The notes under the pieces were generated by a model. That model worked only from the letters and a program-made list of their open reading frames with translations. It searched no databases and was not told the origin of the DNA. From a virus (taxonomy: Duplodnaviria; Heunggongvirae; Uroviricota; Caudoviricetes), in IMG/VR virus record IMGVR_UViG_3300025778_000009: a stretch of DNA of 64,000 bases; one strand, given 5' to 3'. The translations under genes were made by a program, and so were the position numbers. Positions within the stretch are counted from its first letter, which is position 1; each line of letters opens with the position of its first letter. This document shows positions 6,948-53,068 of this stretch, piece by piece.

Positions 6948-7458
6948 AAGACATACTCAGTTAATTAAAGACTTGACTTTTAAAGCTCACAAAATGCTTA
7001 ACGACCCTAAGGTGAAAGCCAGAGTCGATCAAGAAGTTACAATTAATAGAAAGTATGACGTTCCTTTTATTGCTGGTTATTCTAAAGATGGTAAAACAAT
7101 CTATATTGACAGACACTTCAATCCAATGTTTGGAAAGATAGATGTTACACCTTATTTGTTAATTCATGAAAAGACTGAAAAGGCTTTGTTGGATTATTAT
7201 CATTTAGATTATCAACAAGCACACCATCTTGCAACTCACAATGAACATATGCATGTCAAAGCTGATGGTATAGATTGGCGTAAGTATACGGATCATTATG
7301 ATCCTTATGAAAAGAATCTAGAGCACGAACATTTGACAAAAGTTCCTCCAGATTTAGATCTTGAACCTTATAGAGACGAGCATGATCCTAACTTCAAGAA
7401 GTTACAAGACTTGCAAAAAAAAGAAATAAAGTTTAATATAGTAAATAAGCGCGTGTAG
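6940..7458 (+). CDS. His-rich hypothetical protein (HExxE motif, possibly metal-binding)
   Basis: AGYSKDGKTIYID, IHEKTEK, YQQAHHLA; stop codon lies inside tRNA-Leu. Confidence 0.6.
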   Translation: MHKRHTQLIKDLTFKAHKMLNDPKVKARVDQEVTINRKYDVPFIAGYSKDGKTIYIDRHFNPMFGKIDVTPYLLIHEKTEKALLDYYHLDYQQAHHLATHNEHMHVKADGIDWRKYTDHYDPYEKNLEHEHLTKVPPDLDLEPYRDEHDPNFKKLQDLQKKEIKFNIVNKRV

Positions 7459-7525
7459 TCCAATTGGTAGAGGCGCCAGTCTTAGAAACTGGATGTTGAA
7501 GGTTCGAGTCCCTCCACGCGCACCA
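7449..7525 (+). tRNA. tRNA-Leu(TAG) with a short variable loop
   Basis: CCAGT-CTTAGAA-ACTGG; 5-nt variable loop; ACCA end. Confidence 0.88.
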
Positions 7526-7530
7526 TTTCT

Positions 7531-7588
7531 GCCCTAGTAGTCCAATTGGTAGAGGCGCCGGCTTCAAACTCCGGATGATGGGGGTTCG
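7531..7588 (+). pseudogene. 3'-truncated tRNA-Leu(CAA)
   Basis: D arm identical to the upstream Leu tRNA; breaks off after GGGGGTTCG; no acceptor 3' strand or CCA. Confidence 0.7.
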
Positions 7589-7775
7589 TTTCATGATCAT
7601 CTCCTAGTTGAAAGATCATAATAAATTCAATCATTCAATCAGTAATATAAACATGAAATAATGTATAAGACGATTTGAGTACTCGCGTGCCAATTCGTTG
7701 AACTCAAGCCCGAAAGGTGGAAAAAGACTTGATCTACTATCCTCGTCATGCCACCTTAACATTATACTTTTTATT

Positions 7776-7783
7776 TATAAATA
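7776..7783 (+). promoter_or_regulatory. T4-type late promoter
   Basis: TATAAATA 30 nt upstream of ATG 7814. Confidence 0.7.
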
Positions 7784-7813
7784 GTATTAAATATTTCATT
7801 TAGGTAATAATAT

Positions 7814-9085
7814 ATGTCAAGACCATACACAATTGTACCACTTTCTGGTCAAATAACTATGACCGATCTAGACAATGCATTTCATTTAGGTACAGATCTT
7901 GAAGCATATAGAGGTGTTCTCTATTTTAAACCTTCTGTTGATGACAATCCAAGGTATTTCCCTGCTAGCAATTTAGATATGGATATGTTCCATGGTACAT
8001 GGGCAGTTACTCCACCTTCAGTAATAAATTTAAATGGTGGTGAAGCAGGCACTTTTTATATTCCTATTTTTAGAAATTTTATTATTATTCAGGTATGGGG
8101 TGCTGGTGGTGTATCTAGCGACTTAGCTGGTGCAGGCGGCGGCGCTTTTAGACAATTTAATTATTGTTTAGATAGTAGAGCAAATTATATTAATGTTAAT
8201 TATGGAGACACATTTACATATAGAGTAGGAGTAAGTGTTAATGATCCTACAGGAGATTTAAAAAATTCTGTATGGAATGGTATTAAAGTATATGGCGGGG
8301 GATCAGCTTATTCTGTATATGGTGCAGGAGGGGCCGGCTGGAATTCTGCAGGCGGTATAGATAGTAGCAGAGGTTGGTTTCAATCACCTGGTGATCCACA
8401 AATAGAACAATATGGAAGCTTATCAAATAGTCCGTATAATGTACCTTCAGGTAGAGGTAGTGGTTACTATGATGGTAATTTAAGCCCGTTTGGAGGTGGG
8501 GGCGGCCAGTCTGGTCTAGATAAATGGAATGCTGGTCCTTCCGGAGGGTATGCAATATTCGGTGGCGGCGGTGGCGGACAAGCATGGGGCGGAAATAGTA
8601 AATACGGTGGTGCTGGTCGTGGTATGTTAAGAAACGGCTCATCACAATATGGCGGTCAAATAGGTCAAGTACCTGGTGGTGCAGACGCTAATGGTCTTAT
8701 TAAAATTTTTATAGATATTACTCCACCTTTAGACGCCACCAGCGATATGGTATTATACGGTGCACCTCCCGGAAATGATGCTCCCACAAGCGGAGGACCA
8801 TGGGCCAATGTGCCTAGTAATCCGGGTGCAATATCGTGGCCTCCACCTCCGCCACCACCCCCTCCTCCTCCTCCACCACCCCCTCCTGTTGGGGGTCCTG
8901 GAAGTAGTGGCGGAACGGATATTTTTAGTTTTTCTTTGGGTATTCCAAGTCTTGGACCTCCTCCACCACCACCACCACCTGGAGTACCGCCTCCGCCTGC
9001 TCCACCCCCTCCTCCTCCGCCACCCCCTCCTCCTCCTGCTCCACCACCACCTGATTATGGAAGCGGTGAAGGCGGCCACGGCTAA
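7814..9085 (+). CDS. Gly-rich protein with polyproline C-terminus, probably a virion protein
   Basis: VWGAGG...GGGG Gly-rich domain; long Pro runs; late promoter. Confidence 0.7.
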   Translation: MSRPYTIVPLSGQITMTDLDNAFHLGTDLEAYRGVLYFKPSVDDNPRYFPASNLDMDMFHGTWAVTPPSVINLNGGEAGTFYIPIFRNFIIIQVWGAGGVSSDLAGAGGGAFRQFNYCLDSRANYINVNYGDTFTYRVGVSVNDPTGDLKNSVWNGIKVYGGGSAYSVYGAGGAGWNSAGGIDSSRGWFQSPGDPQIEQYGSLSNSPYNVPSGRGSGYYDGNLSPFGGGGGQSGLDKWNAGPSGGYAIFGGGGGGQAWGGNSKYGGAGRGMLRNGSSQYGGQIGQVPGGADANGLIKIFIDITPPLDATSDMVLYGAPPGNDAPTSGGPWANVPSNPGAISWPPPPPPPPPPPPPPPPVGGPGSSGGTDIFSFSLGIPSLGPPPPPPPPGVPPPPAPPPPPPPPPPPPAPPPPDYGSGEGGHG

Positions 9086-9088
9086 TAA

Positions 9089-9117
9089 AAAACCGGGTAT
9101 AAAAAATACCCGGTTTT
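9089..9117. terminator. bidirectional terminator between convergent genes
   Basis: AAAACCGGGTAT-AAAAA-ATACCCGGTTTT. Confidence 0.75.
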
Positions 9118-9142
9118 AAATTTAATAATTTTTATTTTTATT

Positions 9143-9889
9143 TTACTTGTTAATATCTATATTTTTTATTTTTTCTGCATACAGCTCTACACTATGATCA
9201 TACAACCCATCAAACCACTGACCTTTAGACCATGATCTTTTATGAGCGCGCCATTTATCTTTAAAGCGCTGCCATTTAGAAAGATCACGAATATTACCAT
9301 AAAAGTTAATATAATGTAAATTGCCATGGTGTCTAAATCCTAGAGCTGATGGCGGAACTGTTGTTACCATGTCATTGCAATTTACAAATCTATGGTGATC
9401 TGTTTTAATGCCAGCAACATAATCATGGCTCCCTACTCTGGGACTACCATAAGTGTATAACCCAGCTACTTCATAACCTGCAAATTCTAATTCTTGTGTG
9501 ATATAAGTAGCCATTGCAGCACCCAGTGAATGGCCTGTTATCCATATTGTTCTTTTAGGATATTTTTTAACATAATCTAGCACTAAATCTAAAATTTTTC
9601 TTGCTTCTTTTCTAAATCCAGCATGAACAAAACCGTTACCGTGTCTTTTCGGAATAGTGTCAAGATCAGCTAATAAGTCGTTTACTTGAGTCGGTTGTGT
9701 CCCTCTACATGTAATAATAAGATCGTCTCTATTACATGCAGCATGTCCTTGTGCACCTTCATTATCAAAAAATACATAATTTTTTAAGTTGATTTCTTTA
9801 AAATTGTCGCTACAATCATCTTTATAGGCAGCTCCTGCTAATGTAGCAAAGAGATAGGCTCTTTCTAAAAATTTTAGATCTTGTATCAT
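9143..9889 (-). CDS. class 3 lipase (alpha/beta hydrolase)
   Basis: RGT, VHAGF, TGHSLGAA (GxSxG), TYGSPRVG, D.V..VPP, C-terminal DH. Confidence 0.88.
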   Translation of the reverse strand: MIQDLKFLERAYLFATLAGAAYKDDCSDNFKEINLKNYVFFDNEGAQGHAACNRDDLIITCRGTQPTQVNDLLADLDTIPKRHGNGFVHAGFRKEARKILDLVLDYVKKYPKRTIWITGHSLGAAMATYITQELEFAGYEVAGLYTYGSPRVGSHDYVAGIKTDHHRFVNCNDMVTTVPPSALGFRHHGNLHYINFYGNIRDLSKWQRFKDKWRAHKRSWSKGQWFDGLYDHSVELYAEKIKNIDINK

Positions 9890-9931
9890 TGCAGGTTCCC
9901 TTTATATAATATATAATAATAATATTAACCT

Positions 9932-9939
9932 TATTTATA
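9932..9939 (-). promoter_or_regulatory. late promoter for the lipase gene
   Basis: TATTTATA on + reads TATAAATA on -. Confidence 0.6.
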
Positions 9940-9949
9940 GGAGTGTACT

Positions 9950-10177
9950 ATGAAAATGTTACAAGACCAGTTAAACCAATTTATTGGACATGAATTCTCT
10001 TCAGTTAGCGATCAAATTAATAAACTTGCAGAAGAATATCACTTGCAAGTTTTACCATGGCCTGCTAATATAGGTATGGTAAGTGAAGATGCAGGCACAC
10101 TTATAGTTCACATTAATAATGATATAGAAGATATTATTGTTAATTTTAAAATAATTGATGTGGATGCAAATAATTAA
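9950..10177 (+). CDS. hypothetical protein
   Basis: ORF with AGGAG RBS. Confidence 0.65.
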   Translation: MKMLQDQLNQFIGHEFSSVSDQINKLAEEYHLQVLPWPANIGMVSEDAGTLIVHINNDIEDIIVNFKIIDVDANN

Positions 10178-10306: not shown

Positions 10307-11050
10307 ATGCAATACAAATCTATCTTTATTTCTGACATTCACTTAGGTACTAAGATGAGTCAAGCCGATAAGGTTATTGACTTTTTGAAAAACACTGAGT
10401 CAGAGAATTTATTTCTTGTAGGTGATATTATTGATGGATGGGCTTTGCATAAGAACTTCTACTGGCCACAAGAACACAATGATGTTGTTCAAAAAATTCT
10501 CCGTAAAGCACGTAAAGGTACTAACGTAGTTTATCTACCTGGTAACCACGATGAGTTCTTAAGATCTTTTGGATTACATTCATTTGGTAATATCGCACTC
10601 AAAATGTCAGATCTTTATACTGGTATTGATGGTAAGAAGTATTATATCTGTCATGGCGATCAATTTGATATTGTAATTAAAAATGCAAAATGGTTAGCCC
10701 ATATTGGTAGTTGGGCTTATGACATGGTAATGTATCTAAACATTGCATTTAATTTTTGCAGAAGAATGTTGGGTCTTAAACCTTGGTCACTAAGTGCATG
10801 GGCCAAGTATAAAGTTAAACAAGCTGTAAGTTTTATTTCTCTTTACGAAGAGAATCTTTCTAACTATGGTAAAAGTATTAAAGCAGATGGTATGATTTGT
10901 GGTCACATCCATCATGCTAATATCAGAGATATTGATAGTCTTCAATATATGAATTGCGGTGATTGGGTAGAGAGTTGTACTGCCCTTGTTGAACACTTAG
11001 ATGGTAAGTGGGAAATTATACGATGGAACGAACAAGACTCTGCATCGTAA
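10307..11050 (+). CDS. plcP: PlcP/LpxH-like metallophosphoesterase (phospholipase C)
   Basis: SDIHLG, GDIIDGW, WPQEHNDVVQKILRKARKG, GNHDE, HGDQFD, CGHIH, GDWVES; start moved to ATG 10307, after the tRNA. Confidence 0.75.
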   Translation: MQYKSIFISDIHLGTKMSQADKVIDFLKNTESENLFLVGDIIDGWALHKNFYWPQEHNDVVQKILRKARKGTNVVYLPGNHDEFLRSFGLHSFGNIALKMSDLYTGIDGKKYYICHGDQFDIVIKNAKWLAHIGSWAYDMVMYLNIAFNFCRRMLGLKPWSLSAWAKYKVKQAVSFISLYEENLSNYGKSIKADGMICGHIHHANIRDIDSLQYMNCGDWVESCTALVEHLDGKWEIIRWNEQDSAS

Positions 11051-12051
11051 CAGATGCCTGGCTACCACAAGTAAATGGTGTAGTCACTACCCTAACTAAT
11101 TTAGTAGAACAAGCAGAAAAAGATAACTGGGAAGTGTTGGTAATTCATCCTGGTTTGTTTAAAAATATATCTGCGCCTGGATATCCTGAAGTTAAACTAT
11201 CCTGGCCTCGAGGATTAAAAAAAATGATAAGGGGTTTTTCTCCTCATCATTTACATATTGCTACAGAAGGTCCTTTAGGTTTAGCAGCACGAATTTCTTT
11301 CCGTAAAATTACTTTTACTACTGCATATCACACTAACTGGCCTCAATTTCTTAAAAATATTCTTAAAATATCACCGTCTATTACATGGAAATTTATAAAA
11401 TGGTTTCATTCTAATTGCAAGGTAATGGTGCCTACTAAAGGTATTAAAGAAGAACTTGAGAAACATAATATTGGTAAGTCTGTAGTTTTGTTTAGTAGAG
11501 GTGTTAATCTTACTAATCTAAAACCTACAATTAAACATATACCTTCAGATAGAAAAATTAAGTTACTTTGTGTTAGTAGAATTAGTAAAGAAAAAAACTT
11601 AGATGCATATTGTAGTTTAAATCCAAAGTTATATGAATTAGTATTAGTAGGTGATGGTCCATATAAAGAAGAACTTATAAAGAAATATCCTTGGGTATAT
11701 TTTACTGGTACATTAAAAGGTACTGATCTTGCTAATGAATATGTTAATGCTGAATGTTTTGTTTTTCCTTCTTTAACAGATACATTTGGTTTAGTAATGA
11801 TAGAAGCTCAATGTTTAGGAACACCAGTTGCTGCTTTTCCTGTGAATGGCCCTATGGATGTTATTTTACCTGAAACAGGTTTTATGCATGAAGATATAAA
11901 AATAGCAATAGATAAGGCTATGTTCCTTAACAGAACAAAATGCATGAATATTGCACGTGATAAATATAATTGGACTTCCGCTTGGAGACAATTCAAAGGT
12001 CATTTAATTGACCATGAAGATGATAATGATCCTATATTTTTTTTAACATGA
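11023..12051 (+). CDS. GT4 glycosyltransferase, Agt-like (diacylglycerol glycosyltransferase)
   Basis: IVTDAWLPQVNGVV.TL, HIATEGPLG, SRISKEKN, FVFPSLTDTFGLVMIEA; directly follows plcP. Confidence 0.8.
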   Translation: MERTRLCIVTDAWLPQVNGVVTTLTNLVEQAEKDNWEVLVIHPGLFKNISAPGYPEVKLSWPRGLKKMIRGFSPHHLHIATEGPLGLAARISFRKITFTTAYHTNWPQFLKNILKISPSITWKFIKWFHSNCKVMVPTKGIKEELEKHNIGKSVVLFSRGVNLTNLKPTIKHIPSDRKIKLLCVSRISKEKNLDAYCSLNPKLYELVLVGDGPYKEELIKKYPWVYFTGTLKGTDLANEYVNAECFVFPSLTDTFGLVMIEAQCLGTPVAAFPVNGPMDVILPETGFMHEDIKIAIDKAMFLNRTKCMNIARDKYNWTSAWRQFKGHLIDHEDDNDPIFFLT

Positions 12052-12059
12052 GGTATACA

Positions 12060-12860
12060 ATGAAAAAGTTTCTACTTTCCCTTTTATTTTTAATTCCTAC
12101 ATTAGCTTTTGCTGCAGACCAGCAACCTCCAAAAGACATTAAGACATGTGCAGTGCAGATGCCTTACGGTCAGCCTTCTACAAAGGCAAATGATCCGGTT
12201 ATCTGCCGTACTGCATATGTTTTAGAGCACGACTCATTAGCAAAAATTCCAGTTTGGGTAGTCTGGACCTTGACTCCAGAACACGCAATCGGGTGTGTTG
12301 CTCGTACTAATGCTTTTGCTGCTGATCAATCACTTCCTGCTACTGCTCGTTCAACTCCTGCTGATTATGCAGCATCTGGTTATGATCAAGGACATTTAGC
12401 AAACGATGCTGATATGTCATGGGATGATCAAGTTGAGCATGAGTCATTCTACATGTCTAATATGTCACCACAGCTCCCTAACGTTAACCGTGGTACTTGG
12501 AAGAGCCTTGAATCAGCTGCTCGTGCATGGGTATATCAGACTAAGCATGCTCATACAATATATGCCGGTAATATCTTTGCTACTTCTACAAAGACAATCG
12601 GGCCAGATAAAGTATTTGTACCAACTGATCTTTATAAGATTGTAATTGACGACGTAACTAAAAAGTCTTATGCTTTTATTATTCCTAATAAAGAAGGTAT
12701 TGATGCAGACTTTACTAAGTTCCAAGTTACAGTCGCTGACGTAGAAAAAGTTTCTGGTGTTACTTTCCCTGTACCAGATGCAAAGAATGTAAAGAACCCT
12801 TTAATAGTTGCAGATCTTAAGACAATTGCTGCAGATAAAAAGAAGCAATGTAAAGAATGA
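12060..12860 (+). CDS. exported DNA/RNA non-specific endonuclease (NucA/EndA family)
   Basis: Signal peptide; GYDQGHLA; SNMSPQ...NRGTW..LE. Confidence 0.88.
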   Translation: MKKFLLSLLFLIPTLAFAADQQPPKDIKTCAVQMPYGQPSTKANDPVICRTAYVLEHDSLAKIPVWVVWTLTPEHAIGCVARTNAFAADQSLPATARSTPADYAASGYDQGHLANDADMSWDDQVEHESFYMSNMSPQLPNVNRGTWKSLESAARAWVYQTKHAHTIYAGNIFATSTKTIGPDKVFVPTDLYKIVIDDVTKKSYAFIIPNKEGIDADFTKFQVTVADVEKVSGVTFPVPDAKNVKNPLIVADLKTIAADKKKQCKE

Positions 12861-14079: not shown

Positions 14080-14868
14080 ATGAAAAGAATACTATTAGTA
14101 GGTAAAAATAGCTTTATATGTAAACAGCTACTAATAGATCTTAGTATGGTAAATTATGTCGATTGTATATCATTTCACAATTTAGGTGATGTGGTATACA
14201 ACGACTATGATTATATTATTAACTGTGCTATACATCCCGATTATAGAAGTCAACCTTACTCTTACAATAATGATATAGACCTGAAAATATCTAGAAAATT
14301 TTCAGGCTATTTTATTATGTTTAGTTCCCGTAAAGTTTACGGTTCTAATAATGATCTTTTATATTATACAGAAGACTCACCTATAAACCCTAACGATCAC
14401 TATGGGTTAAATAAATCTTTTACGGAAAATACTATTAAGAGTGAGCGCAATAAGAATATTATTCTTAGAGCATCAAACGTGTTTGGTTTGGAATATCAGA
14501 GAAAATCTTATATGGGATTTTTAATGAATCAGTTAAAAGATAGTGGTAATATCGAGATAGATGTGAGCCCGTATACTATTAGAGATTTTATTTGTGTACA
14601 AGATGTTTCTAAAATAGTTAATTTAATTGTTGAAAAAGAAATAGAAGGTACTTATAATTTAAGTTCTGGTTACGGTGAAATGGTAGGTTCTACTGCTGAG
14701 TATCTTATAAAAGGATATGGAAGAGGCAACCTCGTTTCTAAATCAAAAGAACGAAGAGATCAATTTATTTTAGATAATAAAAAACTTTTAACTGCTTTAA
14801 ACGTAGATATTGAATTTAATATTAAAGATCAAATGATGAATTTAGGTGAACAATTATGCAAGATATGA
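14080..14868 (+). CDS. NAD-dependent sugar epimerase/reductase (extended SDR)
   Basis: GKNSFI, SSRKVYG, YGLNK (YxxxK), RDFI. Confidence 0.75.
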   Translation: MKRILLVGKNSFICKQLLIDLSMVNYVDCISFHNLGDVVYNDYDYIINCAIHPDYRSQPYSYNNDIDLKISRKFSGYFIMFSSRKVYGSNNDLLYYTEDSPINPNDHYGLNKSFTENTIKSERNKNIILRASNVFGLEYQRKSYMGFLMNQLKDSGNIEIDVSPYTIRDFICVQDVSKIVNLIVEKEIEGTYNLSSGYGEMVGSTAEYLIKGYGRGNLVSKSKERRDQFILDNKKLLTALNVDIEFNIKDQMMNLGEQLCKI

Positions 14869-15704
14869 TTATTAGTGCTATTAGCGATTATAAAAAAGAT
14901 AATTTGAAATACTGGGTTAACTCTATTAATCGTTCTGGTTTTAATGGTCGTAGGGTTATGGTTGTTCATAATATTTTAGACGAGACATTAGAATATCTTG
15001 ATTCAGAAGGTTTTGAAGTTCTACTTACGTCTGATGTACGTAATAAAAATAACAATGGGTTTCATTTTGCTGATAACTATGGTAATCGTGTTACAGTTTC
15101 TCGTCATTGGTATAACTGGAAATTTTTAAAAGATCAAACTGATGTTCGTTTTGTGATATCGTGTGATATTGATATTATTTTTCAATCTAATCCATCTGAA
15201 TGGTTAGAAGAAAATCTAGGTGATAAAAAATTAAATTATGGGTGCGAGGCTTTGCTTTACAAAGATGAGCCATGGGGTAATGATAATTTAATGCGTTGCT
15301 TTGGTCCTGAGATACACGAAACAATGAAAAATAATCCAATCTATAATGCAGGCTCAATGGCTGGTGAATGTAAAACACTTGCTGATTTTTCTTTGAATGT
15401 ATTTAAAACTATTGAACGTATTCCTAATGATGTTCCAGATCAAGCTGGTGTTAATTTTCTTTTGAATCTTGAACCATATAAATCAATTACTAAATTTAAT
15501 GATCATGATACTAATTGGGCATGTCAGTTAGGCACAACAGCCAATCCTCAAAAGATAGGTCATTTCCGTCCTAACTTATTGAGCTCGGAACCAGTGTTTG
15601 ATGGACATTATATATACAATAGTAAGGGTGAAAAATATTGTTTAGCTCATCAATATAATAAAGTGCCTGAATGGCAAGCTAAACTAGAACAAATTTATGG
15701 ATGA
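14856..15704 (+). CDS. GT-A fold glycosyltransferase-like protein
   Basis: DxD motif CDID, IFQSNP, NAG, DQAGVN, HQY. Confidence 0.65.
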   Translation: MQDMIISAISDYKKDNLKYWVNSINRSGFNGRRVMVVHNILDETLEYLDSEGFEVLLTSDVRNKNNNGFHFADNYGNRVTVSRHWYNWKFLKDQTDVRFVISCDIDIIFQSNPSEWLEENLGDKKLNYGCEALLYKDEPWGNDNLMRCFGPEIHETMKNNPIYNAGSMAGECKTLADFSLNVFKTIERIPNDVPDQAGVNFLLNLEPYKSITKFNDHDTNWACQLGTTANPQKIGHFRPNLLSSEPVFDGHYIYNSKGEKYCLAHQYNKVPEWQAKLEQIYG

Positions 15705-15710
15705 TTTATT

Positions 15711-16661
15711 ATGATTATTGTGACCGGGGCTGCTGGGTTTATTGGCAGCAATTTTGTAAAATATCTAATTAATAAAACCTCAGAACAAATTGCCGTTGTA
15801 GATAACCTTACCTATGCATCTGCATTAGGATTTAAGGATATTGTCAACCTCCCTATTCTTTTATATCGTTTAAATATTATTCATTATGATGCACTTGAGC
15901 CGCTATTCAAAAATAATCAAATTACTGCAGTTATTCATTTTGCAGCCGAAAGTCATGTTGATAATTCTATTGCTAATTGTCAACCTTTTATTGATACTAA
16001 TATAACAGGTACAGTTAATCTTCTTAAGCTGGCTGTTAAATATAAAGTTTTAAGATTTCTGCATGTATCTACCGATGAAGTTTTTGGTCAAATTATAGAC
16101 GGTAAATTTGATGAGTCTTGGGCTCTTCAACCAAGAAATCCTTATTCAGCTTCTAAGGCTGCAGCAGAACATTTTGTAGAAGCATTTCATAACACATATG
16201 GTCTTAATACCACTATTGTTAATTGCTCTAACAATTATGGACCAAATCAATTTCCAGAAAAGCTTATTCCATTAACTATTAATAATCTTCTTAAGGGTAA
16301 GAAGATACCTGTATACGGTACTGGGCAACAAGTACGTGATTGGCTTTTTGTAGAAGATTGCTGTGAAGCAATCTTTAAGGTATACGAGCATTCAATGTCA
16401 GAATATGGGTGGGCACAGGATAGATTTTGTATTGGCGGTGATAATGAAATTGCTAATATTGATCTTATTAAGAAGATTATCTCTATTATGGGTATGTCAG
16501 AAGAATCTATAGAATATGTTAAAGATAGACCTGGGCATGATTATCGCTATGCAACTAGTATTGAAAAAATTAAAAAAGAGTTGAAATGGGAACCTAAAAC
16601 TTCTCTTGATGATGGATTAAAAATTACAATTGATAGGATTAAAAATGAAAATAGGATTTAA
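15711..16661 (+). CDS. rfbB: dTDP-glucose 4,6-dehydratase
   Basis: TGAAGFIG, HFAAESHVD, STDEV, YSASK, NNYGP.QFPEK, DRPGHD. Confidence 0.93.
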   Translation: MIIVTGAAGFIGSNFVKYLINKTSEQIAVVDNLTYASALGFKDIVNLPILLYRLNIIHYDALEPLFKNNQITAVIHFAAESHVDNSIANCQPFIDTNITGTVNLLKLAVKYKVLRFLHVSTDEVFGQIIDGKFDESWALQPRNPYSASKAAAEHFVEAFHNTYGLNTTIVNCSNNYGPNQFPEKLIPLTINNLLKGKKIPVYGTGQQVRDWLFVEDCCEAIFKVYEHSMSEYGWAQDRFCIGGDNEIANIDLIKKIISIMGMSEESIEYVKDRPGHDYRYATSIEKIKKELKWEPKTSLDDGLKITIDRIKNENRI

Positions 16662-17133
16662 CTGTTCTTCTTTTGATTTATTCCATGCTGGGCATGTCGC
16701 CATGCTTAAAATGGAAAAAGAGATGTGTGATTATTTAAAAGTAGCTCTTCAGGTAGATCCTTCTATTGATCGTCCTGGAATTAAAAATAAACCAGTTCAG
16801 TCAATGTACGAAAGATACATTCAATTACAAGCCTGTAAATACGTAGATGAAATTCTTTTGTATGATACGGAAGATGATCTCCTTAATCTAATTAAAAGTC
16901 AGACAATGCATATCCGGTTCTTAAGTGAAGAGTATAAGAACCGTGATTTTACTGGTAAAGAGTATTGTTTGAATAATGGTATTGAGATTCATTATCATCT
17001 TCGCCAACATAATTTTAGCTCTACTGAATTACGTGATAGAATTTATCAAATGGAATTACAAAAAAGATCAGAAAAATTTGAAAGTCCTATTCCACCACAT
17101 TCATTAGAATTGTTGAAGAAGGTTAAAAAATGA
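16645..17133 (+). CDS. tagD: second glycerol-3-phosphate cytidylyltransferase-like protein
   Basis: FDLFHAGH, KYVDE, RQHNFSSTELR; paralog of 3068..3490. Confidence 0.8.
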   Translation: MKIGFNCSSFDLFHAGHVAMLKMEKEMCDYLKVALQVDPSIDRPGIKNKPVQSMYERYIQLQACKYVDEILLYDTEDDLLNLIKSQTMHIRFLSEEYKNRDFTGKEYCLNNGIEIHYHLRQHNFSSTELRDRIYQMELQKRSEKFESPIPPHSLELLKKVKK

Positions 17134-17963
17134 ATCCAAATATGACAATAGTCACAGCCTTTTTTGATGTTGGTAGAGGTGAAGTACCACCCGTAGTAAG
17201 AGGTAGAGAAGTACCTGCATATCAACGTAGAGGCTTTGAGGAATATTTTTATTACTTTAATATGCTTGCATCTATGAAAAATGATATGATCATTTATACA
17301 GAACCAAAGTTTGTTGATGCAATTAATAATATTAGAGCATCACATGGTAATGTAGAGAATACAAAAGTTATTGTATACGAAAATGCGTTAGAGAGTTTTA
17401 ATTTTGTTACAGAGCAATTAAATAAAGTATTAAACTCAGAAGAGTATGTTAGTAAGATTGATAATCCTCATCTTATTGAATATTGGAATGCAAAATATAA
17501 TCTAGTAAATTTTTTAAAGTCACACTTTGTTGCACAAGCATATGAAAATGGTTTTATTAAGACCTCAAAGGCTGCTTGGATTGATTTTGGGTATGTTCGT
17601 ACTCCTAATAATCTTCCACCATCTTTTTATTGGGATTATGATTTCGATGTTAATAAGATTCACCTCTTTAACTTAAAAGAGATTGAACCGGAAAGACCTG
17701 TAGAAGATATTATTAAGACTGGTGACGTCTATATTATGGGTTGTCATATAGTTGCTGGTTCACATATGTGGTCGAGATTAAAAGATTTAGTATTTGATAA
17801 TGTTGCTGAACTGCTAAAACGTAATTTAACCGATGACGATCAAACAATGTTGTTGCTTTCTTATTTGCAAGAGCCTAATATATTTGAATTGCGTCATGTC
17901 GATCCTAGTAACTGGTTTATTATTTTTAATAAATTTAATGATTTGAGAGTTGCAAATGTATAA
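17130..17963 (+). CDS. HtrL/YibB family (putative glycosyltransferase)
   Basis: TIVTAFFD.GR, AWIDFG, DDDQ. Confidence 0.75.
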   Translation: MNPNMTIVTAFFDVGRGEVPPVVRGREVPAYQRRGFEEYFYYFNMLASMKNDMIIYTEPKFVDAINNIRASHGNVENTKVIVYENALESFNFVTEQLNKVLNSEEYVSKIDNPHLIEYWNAKYNLVNFLKSHFVAQAYENGFIKTSKAAWIDFGYVRTPNNLPPSFYWDYDFDVNKIHLFNLKEIEPERPVEDIIKTGDVYIMGCHIVAGSHMWSRLKDLVFDNVAELLKRNLTDDDQTMLLLSYLQEPNIFELRHVDPSNWFIIFNKFNDLRVANV

Positions 17964-18696
17964 TGTAGTTATACCTATGGCTGGATTAGGATCTAGATTT
18001 CCTTCTCATCAATTTCCTATGCCTAAACCGTTAATTCCGGTTAACGGTGAACCAATGATTACTAAGGCTATTAAAAGTTTTGGTTTTGATCTTTTATCTT
18101 TTGACTGTAACTGGTATTTTGTAGTTGCTAAAAATAACTATACAAACCAATTAAAAGATACTATTTGCCTTACAGTTCCTAGTGCAAATTTTATTGATAT
18201 AGACTATATTACAGAAGGACCGGCATGTTCAGCTCTTTTGTTTAAAGATAAAATTAACAATGAAGATGAATTAATTATTGCTAATTGTGATCAGATTATG
18301 GAATGGAGCAGCTCTATGTTCTTCCTTAATGCTCGTTCATTTCAAGGATGTGTAGTAACTTATCATACAGATACTGATAAGAATAGTTTTGCTCGTATTG
18401 ATGAAAATGGTTTAGTTAAAGAAATTAGAGAAAAACAAGTTCTTAGTAATGTAAGCCTTAATGGTATTCACTATTGGCGCCAAGGAAAATATTTTGTTGA
18501 TAGCGCAGAAGAAATGATTGCTGCTCAAGATAGAGCACCTAATGGTGAGTTTTATATTGGTCCAACATATAACTATATGATTAAATCAGGTAAAACTGTT
18601 GGCATCTACCATATACCTAACCAACAGCATCATGCCGTTGGTGTTCCTCATGATCTAGAAATGTATTTAAATTATGTTAAAAGAAAAACTAAGTAA
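17950..18696 (+). CDS. sugar-phosphate nucleotidyltransferase
   Basis: IPMAGLGSRF...PKPLI, TEGPA, IANCDQ, EK, NGEFYI.P.YN. Confidence 0.8.
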   Translation: MQMYNVVIPMAGLGSRFPSHQFPMPKPLIPVNGEPMITKAIKSFGFDLLSFDCNWYFVVAKNNYTNQLKDTICLTVPSANFIDIDYITEGPACSALLFKDKINNEDELIIANCDQIMEWSSSMFFLNARSFQGCVVTYHTDTDKNSFARIDENGLVKEIREKQVLSNVSLNGIHYWRQGKYFVDSAEEMIAAQDRAPNGEFYIGPTYNYMIKSGKTVGIYHIPNQQHHAVGVPHDLEMYLNYVKRKTK

Positions 18697-18994
18697 TATG
18701 ATCCGCGGATGGTTCATAGGTGATTTTGAACCATCCGTGTTTAAGACTAAAGATTTTGAAGTTGGCGTTCTTACTCATAAAAAAGGTGAAGAATGGCCAA
18801 AACATTATCATAAGATTGCTACAGAATATACCGTTTTGCTTTCTGGTTCAATGACCATTTGTGGTGAATTAATTGAAGCTGGAACTATTTTTATTTTAGA
18901 ACCGGGTGAAGTTGCAGATCCAGTCTTTCATGAAGACTGTACAGTGATTGTAGTAAAAACCCCTAGCGTGATTGGAGATAAGTATGTCGTTTGA
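18674..18994 (+). CDS. cupin (RmlC-like) protein
   Basis: RGWFIGDF, HYH...E, EPGE. Confidence 0.75.
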   Translation: MLKEKLSNMIRGWFIGDFEPSVFKTKDFEVGVLTHKKGEEWPKHYHKIATEYTVLLSGSMTICGELIEAGTIFILEPGEVADPVFHEDCTVIVVKTPSVIGDKYVV

Positions 18995-20183
18995 TGCTTT
19001 TCGTGATAAATCTTCTTTAGATCCTCAAGAATACGTATTTGTAAAATATGAATTAGATAGCACTGAAAGTGTTAAGAAGGCAGCTTGGGATCTAGCTATC
19101 GGTCAGAGTGTTGGTAATCCAAATGTTCGTAATGATTGGGAAACAGATGAGCTGTTTGAAAAACATAGTTGCTTGATTACTATGGTAGATGAAGAAAATA
19201 AATTAGCTGAAATAGCTTTTCCAGTTGAGAATACTAATTGGAAAGAAGATGGTATCTCTCACTTACTTTGTCAGATTATGGGTGGTCAAACAGATATTGA
19301 TCATATTATTAAGAGTCGTGTAATTGATATTGAAATCCCTGAATGTGTTAAAGCTTGGTTTAGGGAACCACGATTTGGATTTAAAGGTTATCGTGAGTAT
19401 TTAAACCAATATGATAAACCTTTATTGGGTGGTATTGTAAAACCAAAGACAGGTATTAGCCCGCAAACTCTTCTTGAGATGGTTAAGCAAATGGTCGAGG
19501 GTGGTGTTGATTTTATTAAAGAAGATGAAATTCTTTCCAATCCCAACTTCTGCCCTCTTTGGCAACGTGTTCCATTGATTGCTGATTATCTAGCTAATTG
19601 TGGTCGAAAGGTTGCTTATCATTTTTGTATTAATAGCGATCCTCTATATGTTCTTGAAAGAGCCAAATATGTTGCTAAGCACAGCACTGAAAATTTAACA
19701 TTAGGGGTTCATATTAATGTTTGGTCTGGACTTGGTGTTTACAATTCTATTCGTAAATTAAATTTGCCTTTATTCATTCATTATCAAAAGAGTGGTGAAA
19801 AGACATTTACACATCCAAAGAATCCATTTGGTATTTCATGGCCTGTACTTTGTGAATTAGCAGGATTGTCTGGTGTAGATACTATTCATGCAGGTATGAT
19901 CGGGGGGTATTCTTCTGATGATCCAGTAATGATGGAACAAGCTATTGCAAATCTTAATAAGTATGGGACGGTCCCATCATTATCATGTGGAATGCATCCT
20001 GGTCTTGTTAATCATGTAACTGAATTATTTGGTTCAGTTGATTATATGGCAAGTGTCGGTGGTGCTATTCATGGTCATCCAAACGGCACACTAGCAGGTG
20101 CAACGGCTATGCGTCAGGCTATTGATAAGACTTATGGGCCTGAATATGATGTAGCTATTGCTAAATGGGGTTTAGTAAATTGA
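18984..20183 (+). CDS. RuBisCO-like protein (form IV)
   Basis: IVKPKTG, GGVDFIKEDE, HAG, SCGMHP, GGAIHGHP; lacks equivalents of H294 and loop-6 K334. Confidence 0.88.
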   Translation: MSFDAFRDKSSLDPQEYVFVKYELDSTESVKKAAWDLAIGQSVGNPNVRNDWETDELFEKHSCLITMVDEENKLAEIAFPVENTNWKEDGISHLLCQIMGGQTDIDHIIKSRVIDIEIPECVKAWFREPRFGFKGYREYLNQYDKPLLGGIVKPKTGISPQTLLEMVKQMVEGGVDFIKEDEILSNPNFCPLWQRVPLIADYLANCGRKVAYHFCINSDPLYVLERAKYVAKHSTENLTLGVHINVWSGLGVYNSIRKLNLPLFIHYQKSGEKTFTHPKNPFGISWPVLCELAGLSGVDTIHAGMIGGYSSDDPVMMEQAIANLNKYGTVPSLSCGMHPGLVNHVTELFGSVDYMASVGGAIHGHPNGTLAGATAMRQAIDKTYGPEYDVAIAKWGLVN

Positions 20184-20884
20184 AAAAGAAAAGCGTTTCC
20201 TGGTCAGATGGCCAGACTAATCAAAACATTTTTGATAACTACAATAACTGGATTATGAGTGCTGATAAGAAAGTATTCTTTAAGCTTTGCATGCGCATGA
20301 ATCTTTATAATCAAGTAAAAGATTTACATGGTGATATAGTAGAATGTGGTGTGTTTAAAGGCGCAGGGCTTTTGGCCTGGCTTAAACTTATTGATATGCA
20401 TCAACCTCATTCTATTAAAAAAGTAATTGGTTTTGATTTTTTTGATCCAACATTTACTGATAATTTAGAAAGTACTATTGATAAAGAAAACATGAAACAT
20501 GTTTTTAATAGAGATCCTACACTTAAAGTATCAGAGTTGTCTGTAGAGAGTATTAAAACTAAATTAAATAATGCTGGATACAATGAAAGTAAATTTGAAT
20601 TAATTAAAGGCGATATTTCTGATACTGCTAAAATATTTGTAGAAGATAAACCAGGATTTAGAATATCACTACTCTACTTAGACCTTGATTTAGATCATCC
20701 AACATACGATACTTTAGAAGCATTCTGGGATAGAGTAGTCCCTGGTGGTATTGTTGTATTTGATGAGTATGCTATCTACAGCTGGACAGAGTCAAATGCA
20801 GTTGATAGATTCTTTAAAGACAAAAATGTCAAGATTATAAACACAAATATATTTTCACCATCAGCATATATTATTAAGGAATAA
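20165..20884 (+). CDS. TylF/MycF-family sugar O-methyltransferase
   Basis: GDIVECGVFKG, GFDFF, LDLDL, GGIVVFDEY; start may be TTG 20180. Confidence 0.85.
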   Translation: MGFSKLKKKSVSWSDGQTNQNIFDNYNNWIMSADKKVFFKLCMRMNLYNQVKDLHGDIVECGVFKGAGLLAWLKLIDMHQPHSIKKVIGFDFFDPTFTDNLESTIDKENMKHVFNRDPTLKVSELSVESIKTKLNNAGYNESKFELIKGDISDTAKIFVEDKPGFRISLLYLDLDLDHPTYDTLEAFWDRVVPGGIVVFDEYAIYSWTESNAVDRFFKDKNVKIINTNIFSPSAYIIKE

Positions 20885-20886
20885 AC

Positions 20887-21624
20887 ATGAAGACCGCTAT
20901 TGTAATTAATGGACATGTTCGTACATGGGAAAAATGTAAAGATAACTTCATTGACACTTTCGGTGATTTGAACGCTGACGTATTTGTTTCTGTCTATAAT
21001 AAACAATTTGAATATGCAGAATATATTAGATCAATTCAAGATTTTTATGGTGAAAATATCTTAGAAGAAAATGATATTAAAAGAATGTTTGAAGGTATTA
21101 ATCTTAAAAAGATTGTTATTGATAACAGTGAGGAAATGCAATCAATAGTTGCAAAAGAAAAAGAAAACGTAAAACTTCAATTTAATACACAAGCACACGG
21201 TAAAGATATTTTTATCTCTATTTACCCACAATACCGTAAACTATATTACATTATGAAAGATGTAGCCAAATACGAAGAAGAGAACAACTTTAAGTATGAT
21301 AGAATTATTAAGACAAGAACAGAAGTAATTTATCACCCTGAAGTTTTTAAAAGAGCTTATAGTATCTTAGGTGATAATGAAATACTGGTCGATGCCGGTG
21401 CAGTACCTCTTAACGATGTAATGTATGCATGTAGCCGAGATAATATGTATAAAATTGTTGACTTTCTTTATAATGAATTTTTTGATCCTAAATTTCCTGA
21501 ACATGACGTTCATTGGCCTCCTCACAGTATGTTAAAGATTGGCGTTGAATCAAATAATATTGGTGTTGTTTCTCGCCGGTTGTTTAAGCATATTGAAAGA
21601 GAAAAACTTCAACAGGTGTATTGA
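20887..21624 (+). CDS. putative glycosyltransferase-like protein
   Basis: KTAIVINGHVR and YDRIIKTRTE patterns; paralog of 22079. Confidence 0.55.
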   Translation: MKTAIVINGHVRTWEKCKDNFIDTFGDLNADVFVSVYNKQFEYAEYIRSIQDFYGENILEENDIKRMFEGINLKKIVIDNSEEMQSIVAKEKENVKLQFNTQAHGKDIFISIYPQYRKLYYIMKDVAKYEEENNFKYDRIIKTRTEVIYHPEVFKRAYSILGDNEILVDAGAVPLNDVMYACSRDNMYKIVDFLYNEFFDPKFPEHDVHWPPHSMLKIGVESNNIGVVSRRLFKHIEREKLQQVY

Positions 21625-22082
21625 TGATTAAGATTGCTCATCGTGGTTTATTTGAAAGTCAAAGTAACGACCGTGATTTAGAAAATAAACCTGAACAAAT
21701 TGAATTAGCTTTAGCTAAAGGATTTGATGCAGAGATTGACTTACAGGTAATTAATAATAAATTATTTTTAGGTCACGATACTCCTGATTATGAGATAAAT
21801 GAATCTTTTCTATTAAAAAGAGGTTTATGGATTCATGCCAAGAATGCTGATTCGCTTCGATATTTGGCCACTAAATTGCCTAACCTAAATTATTTTGCAC
21901 ATGCCAATGATCCAGTTGTTATTACGACTCATGGTTGGTTATGGTATCATTGCTATCATCTTAAAGATATGAAGAGAGGTAGAGCCATTGCTGTTATGCC
22001 TGAATACACAATAAGAGATGTTAATTCATTTAATTCTTTAGATTGTGATGGTATTTGTTCTGACTTCGTTGGCCTTTTATGA
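21621..22082 (+). CDS. short glycerophosphodiester phosphodiesterase-like protein
   Basis: IAHRG, EN, EID, GHD, WIHAK, GICSD. Confidence 0.7.
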   Translation: MMIKIAHRGLFESQSNDRDLENKPEQIELALAKGFDAEIDLQVINNKLFLGHDTPDYEINESFLLKRGLWIHAKNADSLRYLATKLPNLNYFAHANDPVVITTHGWLWYHCYHLKDMKRGRAIAVMPEYTIRDVNSFNSLDCDGICSDFVGLL

Positions 22083-22795
22083 GAACAGCACTTATATTAA
22101 CCGGTCATATGAGATGCTGGAAGCAAATGATTCCTCATATGACAGAAAAATATATTAATAAGTATAATCCTGATATATTTATTAGTTGTTGGGAGAACGA
22201 AGGTTGGTGGAAATGGGGGAATGAAAAGGGATTTCATGAAAATTCTAATCATGTAGATCCTGATGAGATAAGATCTCTCCTTAACCCTGTTGAAATGAGA
22301 TATGAATATTTTGATCCTCATGAACCGTATTTTACTGAGAGAGCAAAACGTTATCCTAATTCATATATTTCCCCTAAAAATATTTTATCGATGACTTATA
22401 AATGGCTTGATGGATTTTATCTATTAAAGCATCATATGGCTATTACTGGTAAACAGTATGATCTAGTTATTAAAACTAGAACTGACTTAGAGATAATGGG
22501 TGATTTGCCTGAATTTGATTTAGATAAATTTTATATCATCTATAACCACTACAACCAAGGTGGTCATAATGATGTGTTTTATGCTAGTAACTATCAAAAA
22601 GCTGAGCATGTATCTAATTTTATTCTTAATTTTGACTCATTATATTCTCAAACAAACACAGTCTGTACACATCTAATGACGCAAAAACATTTTGAAAATG
22701 CAGAAATAGACGTGATTTCTTTAAATATTCCATATAGACTACATAATACACCTTGGGGTCAGCACCAAGATGTTAACAGATTTATTAAACAATAA
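22079..22795 (+). CDS. putative glycosyltransferase-like protein
   Basis: RTALILTGHMR, YDLVIKTRTD, ND.F. Confidence 0.55.
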   Translation: MRTALILTGHMRCWKQMIPHMTEKYINKYNPDIFISCWENEGWWKWGNEKGFHENSNHVDPDEIRSLLNPVEMRYEYFDPHEPYFTERAKRYPNSYISPKNILSMTYKWLDGFYLLKHHMAITGKQYDLVIKTRTDLEIMGDLPEFDLDKFYIIYNHYNQGGHNDVFYASNYQKAEHVSNFILNFDSLYSQTNTVCTHLMTQKHFENAEIDVISLNIPYRLHNTPWGQHQDVNRFIKQ

Positions 22796-22867
22796 ATAAT
22801 AAATCGTGTTTTGTTTGACACGAGAAGCATAAGGAGAGTATCCTTATGTCAACCAAAAGGACAAACA

Positions 22868-23335
22868 ATGAAGAAACTACTATTAGCCCTAGTGATGGGG
22901 TGTAGTATGTCCGTTTCTGCATCATACGCCAAAGATACTTCGTCAAATATATCGTCTAATACATCGAAATATACATCGTTAGATATAAAAGAATTAGTTA
23001 CAACTATTGCAGAAAGACATCACGTTCCATTTGATTTAGCGCATGCTGTAATCTATGTGGAATCAAAATATAATCCTAATGTTATGGGTCAAAAAGGTGA
23101 ATATGGCTTAGGTCAGATTCGCTGTGGAACAGCCAAGAGCATGGGATTTAAAGGCAAGTGTGAAGAGTTGCACGATGCTAAGAATAACTTAGAATATAGC
23201 ATGGCTTATCTTCGTTATGCATTAGATCAAACAGATAACGATATCTGTAAAGCAGCATCTTATTACGGTAGCGGGTTGATCCCTAAATCCAATAAAACCG
23301 CATACTGCCGAAAAATACTTGACAATTTAAATTAA
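22868..23335 (+). CDS. exported lytic transglycosylase (SLT domain)
   Basis: Signal peptide; VESKYNP, GLGQI, TAK, NLEYSMAYL. Confidence 0.85.
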   Translation: MKKLLLALVMGCSMSVSASYAKDTSSNISSNTSKYTSLDIKELVTTIAERHHVPFDLAHAVIYVESKYNPNVMGQKGEYGLGQIRCGTAKSMGFKGKCEELHDAKNNLEYSMAYLRYALDQTDNDICKAASYYGSGLIPKSNKTAYCRKILDNLN

Positions 23336-23449: not shown

Positions 23450-23486
23450 TAAATAAATTTTTAATAGTTTTGCGAAAGGGTTGCAA

Positions 23487-23849
23487 ATGAATAAGACTTG
23501 GGGCTATCATCTTCTATTGGATTGTACAGCTGGCGATAAAGAGCTTATTGGTTCAAGAGACAACATTTATAATTTTACTAAAGAATTAGTAGTGGCCATT
23601 GATATGGTTGCTTTTGGTGAACCATGGATTGAACGTTTTGCAACCCATGCAGCAGACAAAGCTGGCTACAGCATGTGTCAAATGATTGAGACATCAAACA
23701 TTACTGGTCATTTCTGTGACAATGATGGTAATTTTTATATTGATGTTTTTTCATGTAAGCCGTTTGAAAATGAAACAGTTATTAGTGTAGTTGATAAGTA
23801 CTTTAAGCCTGAAAAGGTTCGTACTCATTTTATCTCACGTGACGCTTGA
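23487..23849 (+). CDS. speD: S-adenosylmethionine decarboxylase-like proenzyme
   Basis: GYHLLLD, IETSNITGH, YIDVFSCK. Confidence 0.7.
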   Translation: MNKTWGYHLLLDCTAGDKELIGSRDNIYNFTKELVVAIDMVAFGEPWIERFATHAADKAGYSMCQMIETSNITGHFCDNDGNFYIDVFSCKPFENETVISVVDKYFKPEKVRTHFISRDA

Positions 23850-27299: not shown

Positions 27300-27959
27300 A
27301 TGAATGCTAGTATAGTTGCAGTAACACGTCCTACCAGCGGGTTAGACGTGAATGAATTTGTTGCTTACGTAGCACGTGTATCCAATCCCTCCAATCAGAA
27401 CAATATAGAGACAGCACCAAAGCTTATTAAATATCTTATTAAAAATAAGCACTGGTCGCCATTAGAAATGGTTCATGTTGTAATGGAGATCAATACAACT
27501 CGAGACATTGCTCGTCAAATCCTTAGACATCGCTCATTTGCCTTTCAGGAGTTTTCTCAACGTTATGCAGATCCGACAAATGACTTGGGTTTTGTCACTC
27601 GTGAAGCCCGTCTCCAAGATACAAAAAATAGACAAAATTCAATTGAAGTTAAAGACGATCCAGAACTCAAACACGGTTGGAATGAGCGTCAAAAGATAGT
27701 TATTGAATATGCACAAAAAGAATATGATTGGGCTATTAAGAACGGTATTGCAAAAGAACAAGCTCGTGCAGTTCTTCCTGAAGGTCTTACTGTTTCTCGT
27801 CTTTATATGGCTGGTTCTCTTAGAAGCTGGGTGCACTATTGTCAGTTACGTTGTTCTAACGGTACTCAGAAAGAGCACAGAGAAATAGCATTAGATTGCT
27901 GGTATAATTTAATAAAAGAGTTTCCTTCTCTAATAGACTTAGAACTTATCTCACCTTAG
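27300..27959 (+). CDS. thyX: flavin-dependent thymidylate synthase
   Basis: HWSPLE, RQILRHRSFAFQEFSQRY, EQARAVLP, TQKEHR. Confidence 0.95.
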   Translation: MNASIVAVTRPTSGLDVNEFVAYVARVSNPSNQNNIETAPKLIKYLIKNKHWSPLEMVHVVMEINTTRDIARQILRHRSFAFQEFSQRYADPTNDLGFVTREARLQDTKNRQNSIEVKDDPELKHGWNERQKIVIEYAQKEYDWAIKNGIAKEQARAVLPEGLTVSRLYMAGSLRSWVHYCQLRCSNGTQKEHREIALDCWYNLIKEFPSLIDLELISP

Positions 27960-53059: not shown

Positions 53060-53068
53060 GGTAAAGTA

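Follow-up and report, generated by a model that had tools for sequence, protein, structure and literature searches.

A RuBisCO-like protein encoded within a putative glycan-precursor gene cassette of a tailed phage

Gene content of the locus

We analyzed a stretch of 64,000 nucleotides (nt) from a virus of the class Caudoviricetes (IMG/VR record IMGVR_UViG_3300025778_000009), the whole of which is hereafter called the window, and in which a gene for a form IV-like RuBisCO-like protein (RLP) lies within a plus-strand gene chain rich in glycan-synthesis genes. The RLP gene (18984-20183) is intact and encodes 399 amino acids (aa). Its product matched the catalytic-barrel family PF00016 with 146.4 bits (1.4e-42; cut-off 30.1) and the N-terminal domain family PF02788 with 21.1 bits (cut-off 20.7). 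The start codon is likely the ATG at 18984, which gives the same length as in the closest relatives, rather than the TTG at 18972. Upstream of the RLP gene are genes for a sugar-phosphate nucleotidyltransferase (NTase; 17956-18696) and a 106-aa cupin (18674-18994), and downstream are genes for a TylF-family O-methyltransferase (20165-20884; PF05711, 60.3 bits against a cut-off of 23), a GT-A-fold transferase (20887-21624), a minimal GDPD-like phosphodiesterase of 152 aa (mini-GDPD; 21624-22082) and a second GT-A transferase (22079-22795), all on the plus strand. The cupin gene overlaps the NTase gene by 23 nt and the RLP gene by 11 nt, and the RLP gene overlaps the TylF gene by 19 nt, exactly the arrangement given in a preliminary description of this DNA, in which the RLP gene overlapped those of the cupin and TylF next to an NTase gene. 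These overlaps suggest that the genes may be translationally coupled. The dN/dS values between the window and its nearest relative were 0.05-0.08 for the NTase, cupin, RLP and mini-GDPD genes, showing that these four genes are under purifying selection.

The NTase matched phrog_3980 (4e-54), and its family profile matched PDB 4EVW (1e-37), followed by RmlA, ManC and GlmU at 1e-8 to 1e-12 (RmlA 1e-8). In the signature GxGxR...K, G12, G14 and R16 were invariant and K26 was conserved in at least 90% of sequences. The protein was therefore classified as a 4EVW-type NTase; 4EVW, the nearest solved structure, is itself uncharacterized, and the score against the RmlA equivalog TIGR01208 (27.2 bits) was below its cut-off of 320. 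The cupin matched phrog_24762 (8e-37) and carries the metal motif HxH(x)4E(x)6G, in which H44, H46, E51 and G58 were invariant; no histidine corresponding to cupin motif 2 was conserved in the second half of the alignment. Its profile matched the quercetinase YxaG (1.4e-6), a 113-aa mannose-6-phosphate isomerase (7zvm; 7e-5) and, weakly, KdgF.

For the GT-A-fold transferase at 20887-21624, a gene left unnamed in the preliminary description, the nearest atlas clusters carry DUF7796, and the top Foldseek matches of its AlphaFold2 (AF2) model (pLDDT 87.5) were GT-A glycosyltransferases (about 1e-5, probability 1.0). The protein at 22079-22795 is a paralog that matches phrog_13607 (1.8e-10) and aligns with the DUF7796 cluster. 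The mini-GDPD carries the motif HR..EN..ExD..GHD, in which H7, R8, E38, D40, H52 and D53 were invariant among 28 sequences, and its profile matched the GDPD 7e0v (3e-4). Only two of the 28 members matched PF03009, the best with an E-value of 0.033, and none reached the gathering threshold. The AF2 model (pLDDT 92.6) gave Foldseek E-values from 2.5e-4 with TMq values of 0.53-0.63, and its ten best matches, all at E-values of 0.001 or lower, comprised nine GDPD chains and one beta-1,3(4)-glucanase (7ww4, at rank 2). The label of mini-GDPD, which had previously been assigned to this gene, is therefore sound, given that motif, PDB profile match and predicted fold agree.

Active-site residues of the RLP

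Residues were called by aligning one representative of each of the 85 groups of the RLP family (grouped at 90% identity) to form I RuBisCO. K175 and K177 (VKPK), K201, D203 and E204 (KEDE), S379, G381, G403 and G404 were invariant in all 85 groups. Six substitutions were equally invariant, namely E60 to G, T65 to N, N123 to G, H294 to Q (HYQK), K334 to Y (GGY) and G380 to C. Other positions varied among the groups: R295 was replaced by K or S and H298 by D, A or E, and H327 was either H or Q. Judging from this alignment, the lysine-carbamate/Mg2+ center, the enolization residues and the cradle for the P1 phosphate survive. The residues for positioning CO2 and for processing the carboxylated intermediate are lost, and the second phosphate site is degraded. 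CO2 fixation is unlikely because E60, N123, H294 and K334 are replaced in every family member, and carboxylation by this protein is very unlikely. The same had been proposed from the window, where KPK, KEDE and the P1 glycines were seen to be kept and H294 and K334 to be missing, and the alignment confirms these residue calls and extends the pattern to the whole family.

The retention of K175, K177, K201, D203 and E204 together with the loss of the carboxylation residues places the protein, by predicted active site, among the form IV RLPs in general. Its scores were below the cut-offs of the equivalog models for form III (TIGR03326, 173.6 bits against 497), for MtnW/YkrW (NF007095, 132 against 409; TIGR03332, 109 against 514) and for the decarboxylase OiaX (NF042437, 126.9 against 700). 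The protein was approximately equidistant from all solved RuBisCOs and RLPs (PDB E-values 1e-38 to 1e-21), and scored best, in the PDB as in NCBIfam, against form II/III and form III RuBisCOs. Plasmid-borne RLPs, including OiaX, were at most 30% identical to it, and it had no match among the PHROGs.

Conserved neighborhood and gene fusions

To describe the gene neighborhoods, we called open reading frames (ORFs) in 131 loci, clustered them and counted the clusters over the 85 RLP groups. An NTase gene was found near the RLP gene in 81 of the 85 groups, and cupin and mini-GDPD genes were each found in 54. DUF7796-like proteins occurred in 19 groups and FkbM methyltransferases in 17, and GT4, GT25, WavE-like proteins and C-methyltransferases of nucleoside diphosphate (NDP) sugars were also recurrent neighbors. 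In other words, the RLP neighborhood is strongly conserved and always contains glycan genes, and no kinase, mtn or catabolic gene was found among the annotated neighbor clusters of the 85 groups. SDR genes lay within about 8 kb of the RLP gene in 27 groups and were of mixed types, so that RmlB is accessory. The preliminary description had named two results that would speak against a biosynthetic role, namely a methionine-salvage enolase and a neighborhood that is not conserved. We found neither, the MtnW score being far below its cut-off, with no mtn genes nearby, and the partner genes recurring as counted above.

TylF was present in only two of the 131 loci, and the nearest relative of the window has only a 45-aa remnant in its place (L001:11182-11319). 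It is therefore a lineage-specific addition outside the conserved set, and the remnant points to a recent gain or loss within the cassette. The sugar-activating, biosynthetic role suggested earlier for this operon is partly supported, by the conserved glycan-synthesis neighborhood and by fusions of RLP, NTase and cupin, and TylF has to be removed from its argument.

A search for longer relatives identified two tri-domain proteins, P0126 and P0127, of 813 and 817 aa, in which a single chain contains RLP, NTase and cupin. Because their NTase-cupin parts are only 41% identical, these fusions are independent and maintained. P0126 is encoded on two separate contigs (L143:6389-8830 and L144:471-2912) beside a poxvirus-type VLTF3 gene, which indicates that the contigs derive from a giant virus, and a DUF7796-like gene directly follows the fusion gene. 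At another locus (L145), an NTase-cupin fusion adjoins an RLP with a C-terminal extension. These fusions are the strongest evidence that RLP, NTase and cupin act on the same metabolite. In P0128, the C-terminal 345 aa had no NCBIfam match and no similarity to NTase. A 706-aa ORF of Azospirillum (L121) that had been considered as a fusion was rejected; it has no Pfam match and looks like an artifact of ORF calling.

Two sets of loci are arranged differently. At four Legionellaceae loci (L125-L128, from Tatlockia, Legionella maceachernii, L. nautarum and L. drozanskii), the RLP-NTase pair is divergent and stands back to back with a LicD-family phosphotransferase (about 6900-10000; PF04991, 6e-44). 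By BLAST, LicD was found at the Legionellaceae loci only and at none of the phage loci. In a cupin-less RLP subfamily from SAR11, a planctomycete and DPANN archaea (L100-L108, L098 and L104), the RLP gene is flanked by two or three NTase paralogs. In this subfamily F replaces H at position 292.

We also found NTase homologs in 19 records of Synechococcus phages without an RLP. In the cultured phage S-CAM9 (NC_031922), the NTase carries a fused HAD domain of the beta-phosphoglucomutase family. Around it lie three DUF7796-like genes, another HAD gene and an intact mini-GDPD ORF. The latter (L132:8040-8498) encodes 152 aa; GenBank marks only 8211-8498, as a hypothetical protein, and the gene is apparently under-called. 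The fusion partner of the NTase in S-SKS1 is a complete DHBP synthase (RibB) domain (219 bits), and one DUF7796-like gene lies nearby; a mini-GDPD was not detected at this locus. The HAD-NTase fusion is also present in some RLP cassettes. Therefore, NTase and DUF7796-like genes recur, most RLP cassettes, like S-CAM9, also have the mini-GDPD, and the enzyme placed before the NTase is variable, being RLP plus cupin, HAD or RibB. Given that these enzymes interchange at this position, RLP and cupin would supply a phosphorylated substrate for the NTase. RibB, like RuBisCO, acts through an Mg2+-bound enediolate of ribulose phosphate.

Distribution and phylogeny of the RLP family

Relatives of the RLP numbered 2,756 in the protein database, and were encoded by 336 IMG/VR stretches and 46 loci of species genomes. 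The latter include a complete Pelagibacter chromosome, many SAR11 single-cell genomes, Patescibacteria including Beckwithbacteria (L096), Woese-, Nano- and Micrarchaeota, Verrucomicrobia, three Legionella species, Tatlockia, a Francisellaceae genome and Azospirillum oleiclasticum. Overall, the carriers range over phages, giant viruses, SAR11, bacteria of the Candidate Phyla Radiation (CPR), DPANN archaea and Legionellaceae. No RLP was found by tblastn in the 50,697 records of cultured phages in INPHARED.

In a maximum-likelihood tree, the family formed one clade, separated by 9-10 substitutions per site from the form I enzyme and from a DUF1537-linked RLP. Within this clade, the RLP of the window paired with that of a 216-kb relative (SH-aLRT 100), nested among viral contigs. 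The root of this tree is unreliable, as the two outgroups join at different places on these long branches, so that neither the donor nor the direction of transfer can be read from it. Placement among the RLP clades relies on hidden Markov model cut-offs, PDB E-values and a published tree. At an A. oleiclasticum locus (L139; G003:C66), a second, unrelated RLP and a DUF1537-like sequence share a single open frame of 926 codons, which may be a fusion or two genes without an intervening stop codon.

Other genes in the window

The window, part of the DNA of a large uncultured tailed phage, has a GC content of about 35%. Its phage origin is confirmed by nine tRNA genes and by tail-fiber (collagen-like) and baseplate genes. 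The nearest relative is a 216-kb metagenomic contig (L001) that is 88% identical with an identical gene order. Megablast of the region and tblastn of a 610-aa protein (38394-40226) against the 50,697 phage records gave no match; together with the lack of phage or PHROG matches to the RLP, this shows that the phage is distant from cultured phages. In the structural-gene region (35-64 kb), the large ORFs 35861-37651, 38394-40226 and 52037-54112 had no PHROG match, and the lineage is scarce among cultured phages.

From about 11.0 to 22.8 kb the genes form one plus-strand chain, mostly overlapping, in the order GT4, endonuclease, methyltransferase, SDR-like protein, 282-aa protein, RmlB, HldE-II/TagD-like protein, HtrL/YibB, NTase, cupin, RLP, TylF, GT-A, mini-GDPD and GT-A. 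The GT4 glycosyltransferase (11008-12051) and the dTDP-glucose 4,6-dehydratase RmlB/RfbB (15711-16661; TIGR01181, 370.8 bits against a cut-off of 365.1; PF16363, 7e-74) agree with the RfbB and glycosyltransferases that the preliminary description had placed near the RLP gene. A gene that it had called TagD also exists (16630-17133; PF01467, 5.6e-11), and here the label was imprecise: the model of HldE domain II (rfaE_dom_II, 6.3e-18) outscores that of TagD (g3p_cytidyltrns, 4e-10), so that this cytidylyl/adenylyltransferase-like protein is closer to heptose-1-phosphate adenylyltransferase. It is followed by a gene of the HtrL/YibB family (17130-17963; PF09612, 5.9e-49; NF008462, 7.4e-61), which is associated with the core region of lipopolysaccharide. 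The 282-aa protein (14856-15704) was assigned to no family, with a weak match to the PHROG glycosyltransferase phrog_1579 (1.5e-5); its family occurs near the RLP in 15 or 16 of the 85 groups, upstream of the cassette. The weakly RmlD-like SDR protein (14080-14868) matches only the C-terminal two thirds of epimerase/RmlD models (from profile position 93-124 or so, depending on the model), and its N-terminal cofactor-binding part may be degenerate. A DNA/RNA non-specific endonuclease gene (12048-12860; PF01223, 2.8e-46) sits within this glycan operon, at the same position as in the 216-kb relative. Downstream of the chain, among the tRNA genes, are an SLT lytic transglycosylase gene (22811-23335), the S-adenosylmethionine decarboxylase gene speD (23481-23849) and a Thy1/ThyX-family gene (27300-27959), the last labeled from the Pfam Thy1 match of the corresponding gene of L001.

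Proposed function and alternatives

Our proposal of a function starts from what was observed, namely which active-site residues are kept or lost, which genes recur together, the gene fusions, the predicted folds and the purifying selection. From these we infer the kind of reaction, the class of substrate, the glycan target and a pathway in which RLP and cupin precede the NTase. We consider it reasonably probable that these genes form the core of a cassette for a glycan precursor, in which RLP and cupin reshape a keto-sugar phosphate for activation. The RLP would bind a keto-sugar phosphate or its NDP ester, form a metal-stabilized enediolate and re-protonate it, and would thus be an isomerase or epimerase, possibly also eliminating a group. 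The small metal cupin would carry out an adjoining tautomerization or isomerization, and the 4EVW-type NTase would activate the phosphate ester so formed as an NDP derivative. This donor would be moved onto a surface glycan by the DUF7796-like GT-A proteins, TylF would then O-methylate the transferred moiety in the phage of the window, and the mini-GDPD would form or trim a phosphodiester within this pathway.

Several points weigh against this proposal. The P2 phosphate residues vary (R295 as K or S; H298 as D, A or E), which weakens any prediction of the substrate class, and the double NTase flanking of the cupin-less subfamily is not explained by a simple linear pathway. The GT-A genes point to a glycosyl donor, in conflict with LicD, the RibB fusion and the mini-GDPD, which speak for a phospho-alcohol. 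In addition, the RLP could have an NDP-keto-sugar as its substrate, downstream of the NTase, and the glycan target may be the host envelope or the virion.

One alternative is that the product of RLP and cupin is an acyclic ketol or polyol phosphate, formed through an enediolate much as RibB forms dihydroxybutanone phosphate, and that the NTase converts it into a CDP-type donor for phosphodiester attachment, as with ribitol phosphate, glycerol phosphate or phosphocholine, with the mini-GDPD editing the linkage. LicD beside the RLP-NTase pair at the four Legionellaceae loci, the intact DHBP synthase domain fused to the NTase of S-SKS1, the complete catalytic motif retained by the conserved mini-GDPD and the cytidylyltransferase-like gene in the window are all consistent with this. 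However, LicD was absent from the phage loci by BLAST, the transferases that recur there have the GT-A fold typical of glycosyl transfer, and the membership of the NTase-fused HAD domain in the beta-phosphoglucomutase family fits a route through a sugar 1-phosphate. We therefore regard a phospho-alcohol donor as possible but doubtful. A more far-reaching reading is that RLP and cupin rearrange a pentulose phosphate, possibly by elimination of phosphate or water or by a RibB-like shift of the carbon skeleton, into an acyclic deoxy-ketol or branched phosphate, from which the NTase makes a new donor for an undescribed envelope decoration in SAR11, Legionella, CPR, DPANN and phage- or giant-virus-infected cells; we hold this to be rather unlikely.

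Alternatively, the RLP may act after activation, isomerizing or epimerizing an NDP-4-keto-6-deoxyhexose made by RmlB, in a divergent version of the Rml pathway that would consist of NTase, RmlB, cupin and reductase. RmlC of the canonical rhamnose pathway is also a cupin, and the window has a true RmlB, the weakly RmlD-like SDR protein, an NTase of RmlA-like fold and a cupin. Against this, SDR genes are found in a minority of the RLP groups and are of mixed types, the 106-aa cupin with its metal motif is unlike RmlC, and HAD or RibB substitutes for the RLP-cupin pair upstream of the NTase. This possibility seems unlikely. Salvage of a by-product of S-adenosylmethionine was also considered, in which, as in the methylthioadenosine (MTA)-isoprenoid shunt of Rhodospirillum and Rhodopseudomonas, the RLP would isomerize 5-methylthio- or 5-deoxy-ribulose-1-phosphate, the cupin would process the product and phage SpeD would provide MTA. 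Adjacent RLP and cupin genes for consecutive steps have been documented (PMC5893883), and speD lies 1.3 kb downstream. However, the MtnW model score is only 132 bits, no mtnA, mtnB, mtnK or mtnP was found in any neighborhood, speD is present in only one of the 131 loci, and the conserved partners are NTase and glycan genes, so that this explanation is quite improbable. Finally, a catabolic sugar-acid RLP (an OiaX-like decarboxylase) or a genuine carboxylase enhancing carbon fixation by the host can practically be dismissed, for although the protein belongs to the superfamily and scores best against form II/III and form III RuBisCOs, its scores stay far below the OiaX and form III cut-offs, E60, N123, H294 and K334 are absent, and the neighborhoods lack DUF1537 kinase, PRK and AMP-pathway genes.

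RLPs are a textbook case of functional divergence. To our knowledge, every function assigned to them belongs to salvage or catabolism, and a role in building activated sugars has never been shown. If the proposed role in the biosynthesis of nucleotide-activated sugars is true, it would be a new function for the RuBisCO superfamily. Given its presence in abundant marine SAR11, Legionella, CPR, DPANN, phages and giant viruses, the cassette could mark a widespread, unrecognized glycan component that bears on phage-host recognition. It also follows that viral "RuBisCO" genes should not automatically be counted as auxiliary genes of carbon fixation. The natural tri-domain fusion and the cultured carriers, three Legionella species with an RLP, make the question directly testable, with S-CAM9, which has no RLP, for comparison; the RLP-NTase-LicD loci of Legionella in particular offer a tractable genetic system.

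Comparison with known systems

Passages of Jaffe et al. 2019 (PMC6389311) describe about 80 "Form IV-like" RLPs on phage contigs, large and in some cases of myoviruses, from many environments and with no function assigned; these group with Beckwithbacteria sequences and retain only some canonical residues. With its Beckwithbacteria sequence (L096) and its hundreds of contigs from viruses, the RLP family of the window resembles this clade as described. The passages of that paper reached by a term search make no mention of an NTase-cupin-GDPD cassette, of fusions, or of SAR11, Legionella or giant-virus members, and in the literature we found no paper that ties the clade to such a cassette or to glycan synthesis, and none on its function.

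Individual components can be compared with better-known proteins. The mini-GDPD shares the HR...ExD...HD motif and the barrel fold with GDPDs (PDB 2o55, 1zcc and 1v8e), which are 220-250 aa long, whereas the mini-GDPD has only 152 aa and falls below the Pfam threshold. The dTDP-rhamnose pathway of RmlA, RmlB, RmlC and RmlD uses an NTase, a 4,6-dehydratase, a cupin and an SDR protein, and all four protein types occur in the window. However, that pathway has no RLP, and the NTase of the window is of the 4EVW type rather than RmlA, and its cupin is a 106-aa metal cupin.

Three characterized RLPs provide parallels in chemistry. OiaX, a 3-oxo-isoapionate-4-phosphate decarboxylase of the NonPhoto type, acts on the phosphate of a branched keto-sugar acid. 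It is catabolic, about 27% identical to the RLP of the window and found in other gene contexts, an example being the DUF1537-like sequence by the Azospirillum RLP at L139. The 2,3-diketo-5-methylthiopentyl-1-phosphate enolase MtnW/YkrW (PDB 2oej and 2zvi) enolizes its substrate with the same core of K175, carbamylated K201 and Mg2+, and its partners in Bacillus are a HAD phosphatase and a cupin dioxygenase (PMC3698126). The RLP of the window differs from it in its score against the MtnW model, in its PDB E-value of about 1e-25 and in having no mtn neighbors.

The third is the DeepYkr RLP of R. rubrum and R. palustris, which is paired with a cupin (RPA2169/RPA2170); it is an isomerase, and the cupin, a methylsulfurylase, takes the next step to give 1-deoxyxylulose 5-phosphate (DXP; PMC5893883). 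The DeepYkr shunt belongs to sulfur salvage, with mtnP and mtnA in its context, whereas the family of the window is accompanied by glycan genes and a coupled or fused NTase, and no sequence evidence places the RLP or the cupin of the window in the families of that shunt. The likeness lies in the adjacent RLP and cupin genes and in the fact that the DeepYkr RLP is an enediolate-based ketose-phosphate isomerase. In addition, the DXP of the methylerythritol phosphate pathway later reaches an NTase, IspD.

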